This document shows, in pieces, positions 9,454 to 15,132 of a stretch of 46,636 nt of DNA. Numbering within the stretch: position 1 is the first letter of the stretch; every line of letters starts with the position of its first letter. A model generated the notes under the pieces. The model saw nothing but the letters and a program-made list of their open reading frames with translations. It was not told the origin of the DNA and did no database searches. This stretch comes from Steroidobacteraceae bacterium (GTDB lineage Bacteria; Pseudomonadota; Gammaproteobacteria; Steroidobacterales; Steroidobacteraceae). Made by a program: the position numbers and the translations under genes. The stretch spans positions 1 to 46,636 of the forward strand of contig DATIEU010000251.1 of the NCBI GenBank assembly GCA_035455565.1, given 5' to 3'.

Positions 9454-12400
9454 TCAGGCTGCGCGGCGCGATCCCATGAATTCCGCGAGGGCGCTGGCCG
9501 TGTGTGAACTCTGAGCGCGGATGATCGACTCCGGCGAGCCTTCGGCAACGATACGTCCGCCGCGATCGCCGCCCTCCGGGCCCAGGTCGATGATCCAGTC
9601 CGCCTCGGCGATCACGTCGAGATTGTGTTCGACCACCACCACCGTATTGCCCGCATCCACCAGGCGATGCAGGACGCGAACCAGTTTCTCGACATCCGCC
9701 ATGTGCAGTCCGACGGTGGGCTCATCGAGAACGTAGAGTGTGCTGCCATTCTTTCCGTTCACGGGGGAAGAGCGGACCGAGGGCCTGACTTTTGCCAACT
9801 CCGTGACCAGCTTGATGCGCTGCGCTTCGCCACCGGACAGCGTAGGGCTTTGCTGACCAAGGTTGAGATAGCCCAGGCCGACGTCCTGCAGCAGGCGCAG
9901 TGCGTGGTGAATCGACGGATGCGCGGCGAAGAAGGGCGCCGCTTCATCGACGCTCATGCCGAGTACATCGCCGACGCTCTGGTCCTTGAAGCGCACCGCG
10001 AGCGTCTCCGGGTTGAAGCGCCGCCCATGGCAGACGTCGCACACCACGCGCACGTCCGGCAGGAAGCTCATCTCGATCTTCTGGAACCCCTGGCCCTCGC
10101 AGGTTTCGCATCGGCCGCCCGCGGTGTTGAACGAAAAACGACCCGGGCCGTAGCCGCGGATGCGCGCCTCGCTGGTCTCCGCGAACAATCGGCGCACGGC
10201 GTCCCAGAAGCCTACGTATGTGGCCGGGCAGGAGCGAGGCGTCTTGCCGATCGGTGTCTGGTCGACTTCCAGTACCCGGCTTACGTCCTCCCAGCCGCGG
10301 ATCGCGCGGCAACCCATGGTCGCGCCGTTTCGCGCTCGTGAACCGTTCGCGCCGACCAACCGCTTGAGGTTGTCATGCAGCACATCACGGGCAAGCGTCG
10401 ACTTGCCGGAGCCCGATACGCCGGTGACGGCGATCAGCCGCGCGAGCGGCAAGCGCACGCGCAGGTCGCGCAGGTTGTGACGCGAGACGTCTTCGAGCAC
10501 CAGTGTCGGAGTGCGTGGCGATACATCGCGACGCGTTCGGAGCGGATGTGCGAGCGGGCGCGCCAGGAAACGCCCGGTGACCGAGCCCGGGGTGCGCATG
10601 AGATCGCGCGCGCTGCCTTGACCGACCACCTCACCACCCTGACGCCCCGCGCCGGGCCCGAGATCGATCACATGATCGGCATGCCGGATGGTGTCTTCGT
10701 CGTGCTCCACCACGACCAGGGTGTTGCCGTTCGCCCGCAACGCATCGAGCGTATTCAGCAACACACGATTGTCACGCGGATGCAGGCCGATGGTCGGCTC
10801 ATCGAGGATGTAGCACACACCCTGGAGGTTCGAGCCGAGCTGCGCCGCAAGCCGGATGCGCTGCGCCTCGCCGCCAGACAACGTCGGGGCCGAGCGGTCG
10901 AGCGACAGGTAACCCAAGCCAACATCATCCAGAAATTTCAGTCGGGACTCGAGCTCCCCCAGTACATCGCGTGCGATTTCCGCTTCACGACCGTCGAGCA
11001 CCAGCTTCCTGAGGAAACCCTGCAGTCCGGTGACGGGCAGCGCGGTCAACTGGGCGATCGAGCGATCACGGAAGCGAACGCTGAGGGCGACCGGGTTGAG
11101 CCGCGCACCGTGGCAGGCGTCGCAATGCGACTCATCACCCTCCCACCACTCGTTCCACCAGATCTCCTCGCCGCTCTGTTCCCCGTCGAAGCCGTAGAGC
11201 TCGAGACCGGTGCCATAGCAGTGCTCGCACCAGCCGTGACGCGAGTTGAACGAGAAGAGCCGCGGATCGAGATCCGCAAAGCTCGAGCCGCACTTCGGGC
11301 ACGTGCGGCGCGTCGAGAACACCTGGACGTCCGCGGAAGCAGGACGCGCACCGCGCTTGGGTGGCGAATCCTTGCGGCGCGCGAGCACGTGCAGCAGTCC
11401 TTTGCCGAGCTCGAGTCCGCGTGCGACGGCTTCACGCAGCTGCCTTTCACCGCGCGGGGACAACGTGAGGGTAGCGACCGGCAATTCGATCGTGTGTTCG
11501 CGAAAGCGGGCGAGACGCGGCCACTTGGCTGTGGGCAGCAAAGCGCCGTCGACGCGCAGTTGTTTGTGGCCCTTGCCCGCGGCCCACTTCGCGAGGTCGG
11601 TGTAATACCCCTTGCGCGACACCACGAGTGGCGCCAGCACCGTCACAGTCTCGTTGCGCTGCTCGCGCTGGAGACGCGCGACGATCGACTCGGCGCTCTG
11701 AGGCTCGATCGGCACGTCGCACTTGGGGCAGAACTGCGTGCCCAGTTTGACGTACATGAGTCGCAGGAAGTGATACGTCTCGGTGAGGGTCGCCACCGTG
11801 CTCTTGCGTCCACCGCGGCTGGTGCGCTGCTCGATCGCGACCGTGGGTGGAATGCCGTAGATCGCATCGACGTCGGGTCGCGCCGCAGGCTGGACGAACT
11901 GGCGCGCGTAAGCGTTGAGTGACTCGAGATAGCGCCGCTGACCCTCGGCGAACAGAATGTCGAACGCCAGCGTCGATTTGCCTGAGCCTGACACGCCAGT
12001 GATTACAGTGAACCGGTCGCGCGGGATTTCGACCTCGACGCCCTTCAGGTTGTGTTCGCGTGCGCTGTGAATACGGATGGAACGCGGGAGCGGGGAAGCA
12101 GGCGTGCTCTCTCGCCCCGGCGGGGAGAGGGTTGGGATGAGGGGTTCCTTCAATGCGCGCTCGTAGTCCAGCAGCGCTTTGCCCGTGTGCGAGCGCGCGC
12201 AGCGCATCACGTCCTTTGGCGTGCCCACGCACAGGATCTCGCCTCCGCCGTCACCGCCCTCGGGTCCGAGATCGATGACCCACTCGGCAGCGCGGATCAC
12301 GTCGAGGTTGTGCTCGATCACGATGAGCGAATGGCCGACCGCGAGCAGTTGCCGGAACGCGCGCAGTAGCTTGGCCACATCGTCGAAGTGCAGCCCGGTG

Positions 12401-15132: not shown

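Follow-up and report, generated by a model that had tools for sequence, protein, structure and literature searches.

The window analyzed here comprises 46,636 nucleotides of contig DATIEU010000251.1 from a Steroidobacteraceae bacterium, and on its minus strand, at positions 9454..15132, lies a gene that encodes two UvrA units in a single polypeptide chain. The gene is intact. Its two units differ from one another, and this asymmetry is real, conserved, and larger than an initial annotation of the DNA had it: as judged by alignment, only unit 1 keeps both the insertion domain and the residues with which canonical UvrA docks UvrB, an observation that is new here. In the view toward which we lean, the product is a single-chain pseudo-dimer of UvrA with an accessory role: it would sense DNA damage and dock a single UvrB, working beside a canonical UvrA. 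The stoichiometry of UvrA and UvrB has long been debated, and a mutation in canonical UvrA hits both protomers, making the division of labor among ATPase sites, insertion domains, and UvrB docks hard to dissect. A natural single-chain UvrA thus offers a tool in which every site has its own codons and from which one insertion domain and one docking surface have already been lost in evolution. The gene is present in the genetically tractable genera Ralstonia, Cupriavidus, and Burkholderia.

Two unequal UvrA units in one intact gene

Translation of 9454..15132 (-) yields one uninterrupted, stop-free frame of 1892 codons closed by a single terminal stop. The frame stays open upstream as far as a TTG start at 15312; the ATG at 15132 is the start also used by a homologue (P0001) of 1892 residues that is 98% identical. 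The existence of full-length homologues and matches to the NCBIfam UvrA equivalogs NF001503 and TIGR00630 (about 2000 bits, above the cut-offs) mark the coding sequence as complete, and a sequence search with each half against solved UvrA structures returned E-values of about 1e-238.

All of the motifs expected of four ATP-binding cassette (ABC) modules were located in the translation. The Walker A motif GVSGSGKS begins at residues 65, 686, 1046, and 1571 (nt 14940, 13077, 11997, and 10422; for motif positions on the minus strand, the highest nucleotide coordinate is given). Unit 1 carries one copy in nucleotide-binding domain I (NBD-I; aa 65–72, 14917..14940, -) and one in NBD-II (aa 686–693, 13054..13077, -); the copies of unit 2 lie at aa 1046–1053 (NBD-I; 11974..11997, -) and aa 1571–1578 (NBD-II; 10399..10422, -). 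The LSGGE signatures occur at residues 532, 880, 1418, and 1765, the Walker B motifs at 554 (LFVLDEP), 904 (LLLFDEP), about 1440 (CYILDEP), and 1799 (LYVLDEP), and the H-loop EH pairs at 590, 940, 1476, and 1835. There are also six four-cysteine zinc modules (24 cysteine positions), three in each unit, including a C-terminal zinc finger. For comparisons at the level of individual residues, both units of 41 family members were aligned with the UvrA proteins of Geobacillus stearothermophilus, Thermotoga maritima, and Mycobacterium tuberculosis. The ATPase residues (Walker A Lys, Walker B D/E, H-loop His, and LSGGE) of all four sites are invariant in 41/41 members. The same holds for 23 zinc-module cysteines out of 24; at the remaining position, C1138, 35/41 members have Cys and the others H or D. 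These results bear out the initial annotation, which had described one gene with two UvrA units, four ABC modules, four LSGGE signatures, and four Walker B motifs. It had placed the Walker A motifs near 14930, 13070, 11985, and 10410, within about 10 nt of where we locate them, and had put their spacings at about 620 and 525 codons; the measured distances are 621 in unit 1 and 525 in unit 2.

Could the long frame be an artifact of assembly or sequencing that fused two adjacent uvrA-like genes? Nothing except its unusual length speaks for such an error. Four Walker A motifs in one frame are found in at least 118 independent homologues, 73 genomic loci have a single open frame of more than 1700 codons, and one-frame copies reside on complete Ralstonia, Burkholderia, and Kinetoplastibacterium replicons. 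We therefore reject this explanation as having practically no chance of being correct.

Unit 1 (aa 36–994; 12151..15027, -) follows a variable N-terminal extension (aa 1–35; 15028..15132, -; 9% identity and 64% gaps in the family alignment). By alignment, AlphaFold2 (AF2) modeling, and Foldseek, it is a class-I-like UvrA with two ABC and three zinc modules, and M. tuberculosis UvrA (3zqj) can be aligned with it over the whole length. Unit 2 (aa 1018–1892; 9457..12081, -) is a UvrA without the insertion domain, as identified by phmmer against UvrAs in the PDB, AF2, and Foldseek. The AF2 models were made of the separate units (aa 36–994 and aa 1018–1892) and not of the full chain. The model of unit 1 had a predicted local distance difference test (pLDDT) score of 79.4 and a predicted template-modeling (pTM) score of 0.71, with 2r6f and 3uwx as the top Foldseek matches (TM score 0.79–0.84); for unit 2 the values were 79.7 and 0.73, with 3uwx and 2r6f at the top. 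Over both models, these class I matches had TM scores of 0.74–0.84.

The units are joined by a 23-residue linker, KEPLIPTLSPPGRESTPASPLPR (aa 995–1017; 12082..12150, -). It is flexible and, as the initial annotation had described for about 12075–12145, rich in Pro and Ser. Across the family, the linker is A/P/R/S-rich with 11% identity, and no homologue has a stop in it. Its aligned window ranges from 33 to 76 residues, leaving about 13–56 between conserved flanks. The linker is the only unconserved part of the protein: every domain is 59–88% identical across the family.

The insertion domain is the first point at which the units part. In unit 1 it extends from CESC to CADC (aa 305–423; 13864..14220, -), and Pfam UvrA_DNA-bind matches at aa 318–389 alone, with E = 9e-14 on the isolated segment. 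The distance between the cysteine pairs is 115 residues in unit 1 (CESC at 305 to CADC at 420) and 35 in unit 2 (CEHC at 1302 to CDAC at 1337). The phmmer alignment of unit 2 skips residues 284–372 of T. maritima UvrA and 312–430 of M. tuberculosis UvrA, which are the insertion domain. In place of that domain, unit 2 has a short, Trp-rich, acidic loop, EEIWWNEWWEGDE, recognized by the cysteine spacing (aa 1302–1340; 11113..11229, -); it is 66% identical in the family and was modeled by AF2 as a low-confidence loop with one short helix. The claim of a single insertion domain, located in unit 1, therefore holds.

The initial annotation had missed a second asymmetry, which concerns UvrB docking. 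Manelyte et al. (2010; PMC3025350) employed UvrA R216A E222A as a mutant of the surface that interacts with UvrB and probably also with Mfd. In unit 1, the corresponding helix (14401..14454, -) carries D227, R228, R238, and E244, the equivalents of D205, R206, R216, and E222 of the UvrB/Mfd contact surface of E. coli and Bst UvrA. All four are invariant in 41/41 members. We extended this check to 73 full-length genomic loci from several phyla (loci L086 and L087 included), in which the D, R, R, and E were present in 73, 73, 73, and 72 cases, respectively. In unit 2 of the 41 members, by contrast, the equivalents of D205 and R206 are A and D/T/E, that of R216 is A/E/Q, and that of E222 is A/T (mostly A/E/D/T once the genomic loci are included); only 3/73 loci have R at the R216 position.

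The domains in which these residues reside do not follow the same pattern. Unit 1 has a truncated UvrB-binding-like domain between the cysteines of zinc module 1 (aa 154–284; 14281..14673, -): the match to Pfam UvrA_inter is partial (29 bits), and about 25–30 central residues are absent. Nonetheless, it was modeled as compact (pLDDT of about 90), and the docking residues are invariant despite the missing central stretch and an altered LAP..KKG motif. Unit 2 retains the fold of the UvrB-binding domain (aa 1135–1281; 11290..11730, -; UvrA_inter, 86 bits) and has lost the contact residues. Unit 1 also has, after zinc module 2, a family-specific insertion of about 31 residues (aa 436–467; 13732..13827, -) that, according to the alignments, has no counterpart in unit 2 or in canonical UvrA and is 45% identical within the family.

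The DNA-binding arginines are distributed the other way. Four of them, R712, R722, R724, and R730, were mutated in the earlier study, in which the insertion domain was found to contribute to telling damaged from undamaged DNA (PMC3025350). Equivalents of the whole set are retained in unit 2. Of the 41 unit 1 sequences, 38 have T where R730 would be, and 35 have R or K at the R722 position.

Compared with canonical class I UvrA (E. coli; G. stearothermophilus, 2R6F and 3UWX; T. maritima, 3PIH; M. tuberculosis, 3ZQJ), then, each unit is about 40–47% identical and has the same organization of ABC, zinc-module, and signature domains, and unit 1 possesses the two accessory domains together with the R216/E222 equivalents. 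However, the class I chain has about 940–1000 residues and forms a homodimer, whereas the window protein has 1892 residues in two diverged units. Unit 1 departs from class I in its truncated UvrB-binding domain, its extra 31-residue insertion, and its lack of an R730 equivalent; unit 2 does so in lacking the insertion domain and the UvrB-contact residues.

Distribution and ancestry of tandem UvrA proteins

A protein search yielded at least 120 clusters of 1721–2016 residues and 68–98% identity. Of the 120 listed, 118 have four Walker A motifs, all with the same unequal spacing (about 590–670 codons in one unit vs. 513–570 in the other among all members). In a scan of one genome per species with family-specific peptide patterns, 255 stretches were found, and the best 80 were examined; all were full length and 48–84% identical. 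The peptide EIWWNEWW, from the replacement loop of unit 2, served as one such pattern. These best 80 came from Steroidobacteraceae, Povalibacter, Pelomicrobium, a Solemya gill symbiont, Sedimenticolaceae, Arenicellales, Burkholderiales, and Rhodocyclaceae, and also from Geobacteraceae, Nitrospira, Nitrospinota, Spirochaetales, Verrucomicrobiota, and others. Xanthomonas was not among them, and the “class III” UvrA that the initial annotation mentions for that genus was not confirmed in a literature search.

Copies on secondary replicons match at 60% identity in a single stretch that covers 98% of the length and crosses the linker. In all, 157 plasmid or chromid records span the unit junction in this way. 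The Ralstonia solanacearum megaplasmid accounts for 134 records with a 60%-identical copy; others are on third replicons of Burkholderia, on replicons of Mycetohabitans and Caballeronia, and on the second replicon of Cupriavidus metallidurans (NZ_CP046333.1). The Burkholderiales proteins (Ralstonia, Burkholderia multivorans, C. metallidurans) share with the window protein the arrangement in which a full unit precedes one that lacks the insertion domain, and they likewise keep the D/R/R/E residues in unit 1 only; they differ in being encoded on secondary replicons, the window copy having an ordinary chromosomal context (hslVU, xerC, and dapF nearby). The trypanosomatid endosymbiont Ca. Kinetoplastibacterium crithidii (CP064915.1; 816,901 bp) has a tandem UvrA at 6001–11430, in which unit 1 has N at the E222 equivalent.

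Such copies have already been given labels: “excinuclease ABC subunit UvrA” (PGAP), “Excinuclease ABC subunit A, dimeric form” (RAST), and “uvrA_2” (Prokka). The genome paper on C. metallidurans CH34 reports a uvrA2 (Rmet_4549, a presumed tandem copy) on CHR2 beside the canonical uvrA, and one on Alcaligenes faecalis lists “uvrA ... and dimeric uvrA”. Hence the window gene is a member of a widespread and previously annotated family of tandem, “dimeric form” UvrAs. The novelty that had been suggested for it does not extend to the architecture, which is common and carries the names dimeric form and uvrA2.

The wider superfamily was surveyed by an exhaustive HMMER search with unit 1, from which the best 150 representatives at 50% clustering (P0121–P0270) were taken. 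About 101 of these have four Walker A motifs. Several tandem layouts were evident: two full units; a full unit with one lacking the insertion domain, which is the layout of the window protein (at least 21 clusters); a double class II; and a class I joined to a class II. The double class II proteins are about 1600–1680 residues long, and some forms reach about 2340. The R216/E222 pair is retained somewhere in 55 tandem representatives, 44 of which keep it in one unit only; in the window gene's family, this is always unit 1.

The units of a tandem protein are seldom each other's closest kin. In 66/67 tandem representatives, the nearest relative of unit A was not its own unit B. In the window protein, the units are 34% identical in their N-terminal parts and 46% in their C-terminal parts; NBD-II, at 51%, is about as similar between the units as either is to that of T. 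maritima or M. tuberculosis UvrA. A recent internal duplication is thus rejected, as the units (34–51% identical) are no closer to each other than each is to canonical UvrAs, and the fusion must be old. We also sought a split version of the protein, with stand-alone singles resembling unit A, and found none in the candidates P0270 and P0230: the former is a normal single UvrA whose gene lies among ribosomal-protein genes and dnaB, and the gene upstream of the latter is not UvrA-like.

A double UvrA of about 1800 residues is also known from Chlamydia (NF001885/PRK00635; 1809 positions). The window protein is not a member of that group, scoring 1161.5 bits against a cut-off of 3054. Presumably, the PRK00635 model represents the sole UvrA of Chlamydia.

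Proposed function and its alternatives

How might such a protein work? Each half resembles a class I UvrA with two ABC ATPase sites that appear catalytically intact and three zinc modules. Tethered by the variable, low-complexity linker, the halves would most likely fold onto one another and thereby rebuild, within a single polypeptide, the four-ATPase UvrA2 sensor of DNA damage. Unit 1 would supply the sole insertion domain and the sole conserved dock for UvrB/Mfd; unit 2 would supply the four DNA-binding arginines and a UvrB-binding-domain fold. The protein might scan DNA at the expense of ATP and then hand a lesion to a single UvrB in an A-A'·B1 complex, acting as an accessory sensor in nucleotide excision repair (NER) alongside canonical UvrA. 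Complexes with one UvrB are physically plausible, because PDB 9ga3, which was among the Foldseek matches, is M. tuberculosis UvrA2 with one UvrB. An accessory role is likelier than a housekeeping one because co-occurrence with canonical uvrA has been reported in Burkholderiales; the window organism presumably has a canonical uvrA as well.

Several observations weigh against this proposal. The unit 2 helix has near-invariant residues of its own, and another partner could bind there. UvrB binding is not assured, given the truncation and the weak Pfam score of the UvrB-binding domain in unit 1. The gene neighborhood is not conserved, with no uvrB, uvrC, or mfd in the window or at the homologue loci. 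A search limited to the LexA box CTGT-N8-ACAG, which does not cover the LexA motifs of other lineages, found no such site upstream of the window gene and found it in just 1 of 66 upstream regions. Our literature search returned no functional study of, or experiment on, any tandem UvrA. Finally, the tandem copy in the 0.82-Mb Kinetoplastibacterium genome keeps alive the alternative that the protein is the organism's only UvrA, carrying out ordinary UvrABC repair with the fusion merely replacing homodimerization. That genome, of Ca. K. crithidii, retains among housekeeping genes a protein of the same domain layout (P0147; 1809 residues); scores above the NCBIfam UvrA equivalog cut-offs and the existence of an “excinuclease ABC subunit A” model of 1809 positions (PRK00635) point in the same direction. 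Against a housekeeping role stand the co-occurrence of the family with canonical uvrA in described genomes (compare the Prokka name “uvrA_2”), the location of Burkholderiaceae copies on secondary replicons, the patchy distribution across phyla, and the lack of ssb or another NER gene adjoining the window gene. We regard this alternative as improbable.

The principal competitor to a single-chain sensor that docks UvrB is a UvrB-independent protein akin to class II UvrAs such as Ecm16 and DrrC, which would use ATP to recognize intercalators or adducts bound to DNA and clear them, or else to protect the DNA. A precedent exists: Ecm16 is a UvrA-like protein that can work without UvrB, UvrC, or UvrD (PMC9328131). 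An accessory paralogue with a patchy, transfer-like distribution would fit this explanation, as would the fact that the putative co-transcribed partner in the closest clade is pirin and not a repair gene. Class II proteins (Deinococcus radiodurans UvrA2, 2VF7; Ecm16, 7SH1; DrrC) are single units, accessory paralogues with an uncertain or non-NER role, and they share the ABC core with the window units (Foldseek TM scores of 0.57–0.67 when normalized to the query and 0.69–0.87 when normalized to the target). However, class II UvrAs have neither the UvrB-binding domain nor zinc module 1 (PMC9328131), whereas both window units keep them, having a domain-sized insert flanked by the cysteines of zinc module 1. 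The invariance of the unit 1 contact residues across phyla weakens this explanation further, being hard to account for without a partner of the UvrB or Mfd type, and the window contains no biosynthetic gene cluster. We consider a UvrB-independent role unlikely; should it prove correct, the protein would represent a further NER-independent role for UvrA-like ATPases. A different objection concerns assembly: the sequence does not force the halves to pair within a chain, and tandem chains might instead dimerize or swap domains, for a total of eight ATPase sites. The shortest linkers in the family, with about 13–15 residues between flanks, may be too short for intramolecular pairing, depending on the distance between the termini. 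On the other hand, the halves have diverged in a complementary fashion, as expected of an obligate 1:1 heteropair, and the finding that unit A is not closest to its own unit B in 66/67 tandem representatives argues for long co-evolution as two distinct partners. Pairing between chains therefore seems rather unlikely to us. Anti-phage defense of the MADS type was also entertained, owing to PADLOC matches of mad3 (515 bits) and mad8 (210 bits) to the nucleotide-binding domains. These matches are confined to UvrA-type ABC modules, the window has no methyltransferase or other mad gene, and the neighborhoods of the homologues are housekeeping and variable. ABC and phospholipase D (PLD) domain homology alone explains the PADLOC matches to MADS or DISARM, and we rejected defense as highly improbable.

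The mad3 match covers aa 1025–1521 (NBD-I) and the mad8 match aa 1551–1843 (NBD-II), at nt ~9604–12060. Because mad3 and mad8 match the NBD-I and NBD-II of UvrA, it is implied that the MADS defense proteins are UvrA-derived ABC modules.

A generalization of the single-chain, one-UvrB proposal is more doubtful. Tandem UvrAs as a group could be obligately asymmetric sensors, with one UvrB dock and one insertion domain per four-ATPase machine; we offer this as a tentative idea that is probably too broad. If it were true, one UvrB per UvrA pair would suffice for function, and the fixed geometry might dictate how UvrB is oriented toward the sensor when it is loaded. It would also provide a handle on UvrA2B1 vs. 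UvrA2B2 and on what each of the four ATPase sites contributes, sites that cannot be altered one at a time in a homodimer.

Genomic neighborhood and expression

A pirin gene (8536..9444, -; Pfam Pirin and Pirin_C) begins 9 nt after the uvrA stop on the same strand, in agreement with the initial annotation. The spacer between the stop and the pirin ATG, GGAGCACAC (9445..9453, -), contains a Shine-Dalgarno-like GGAG when read directly, and no terminator-like site was found between the two genes. Pirin follows the tandem uvrA in 8/87 related loci, namely in the closest clade and a few others, including the five relatives at 74% identity or more. In the closest clade, pirin is probably co-transcribed with the tandem uvrA; the low count leads us to reject a family-wide uvrA-pirin operon.

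On the other side of the gene, three open reading frames (ORFs) assigned with Pfam diverge from it on the plus strand: a small NlpE_C-like ORF with a signal-peptide-like N-terminus (15269–15652), a metallo-β-lactamase (MBL)-fold ORF (15671–16567), and, directly after the latter, a Pyr_excise ORF of the T4 endonuclease V family (16571–17011; E = 1e-22). The DenV-type glycosylase gene reported by the initial annotation is thus present and divergently oriented. Its position is not conserved, however: among the 87 related loci, none has the Pyr_excise or the MBL gene in its flanks, and a functional link between the glycosylase and the tandem UvrA was therefore rejected.

The window is otherwise ordinary chromosome, with hslVU, xerC, DUF484, dapF, hemXY, amtB, and others. 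A housekeeping block at 22920–30702 (hslU, hslV, an S8 peptidase gene, xerC, DUF484, and dapF) is syntenic with the relative L001, which is 86% identical, and because of this block we assign the region to the core chromosome. Relative to L001, synteny is kept on the pirin side and differs between uvrA and hslU. DUF1501/DUF1800 genes are further neighbors of the tandem uvrA in the window, and more distant homologues have unrelated neighbors.

The one upstream region with a LexA box belongs to B. multivorans (L087; NZ_CP143553.1), in which a strong, near-consensus LexA-box-like site, CTGTATGAATATACAG / AACTGTATGAATATACAGTA, lies 129 nt upstream of the tandem uvrA. The site suggests SOS control of that orthologue. 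The window copy differs in having no such site, and SOS control as a general feature of the family, judged by this one type of box, was rejected.

A gene for a 655-residue PLD protein with two PLD-like domains is at 17464–19431 (+). The protein has a weak, sub-threshold likeness to cardiolipin synthases and to the DISARM nuclease DrmC; in L001, too, a PLD gene is near the tandem uvrA. A GTG-started ORF of 609 residues (15179–17008, -) runs antisense to the MBL and Pyr_excise genes and is most likely spurious, as is common in DNA of 65% G+C. Several more long ORFs of this kind run antisense across the uvrA gene itself.

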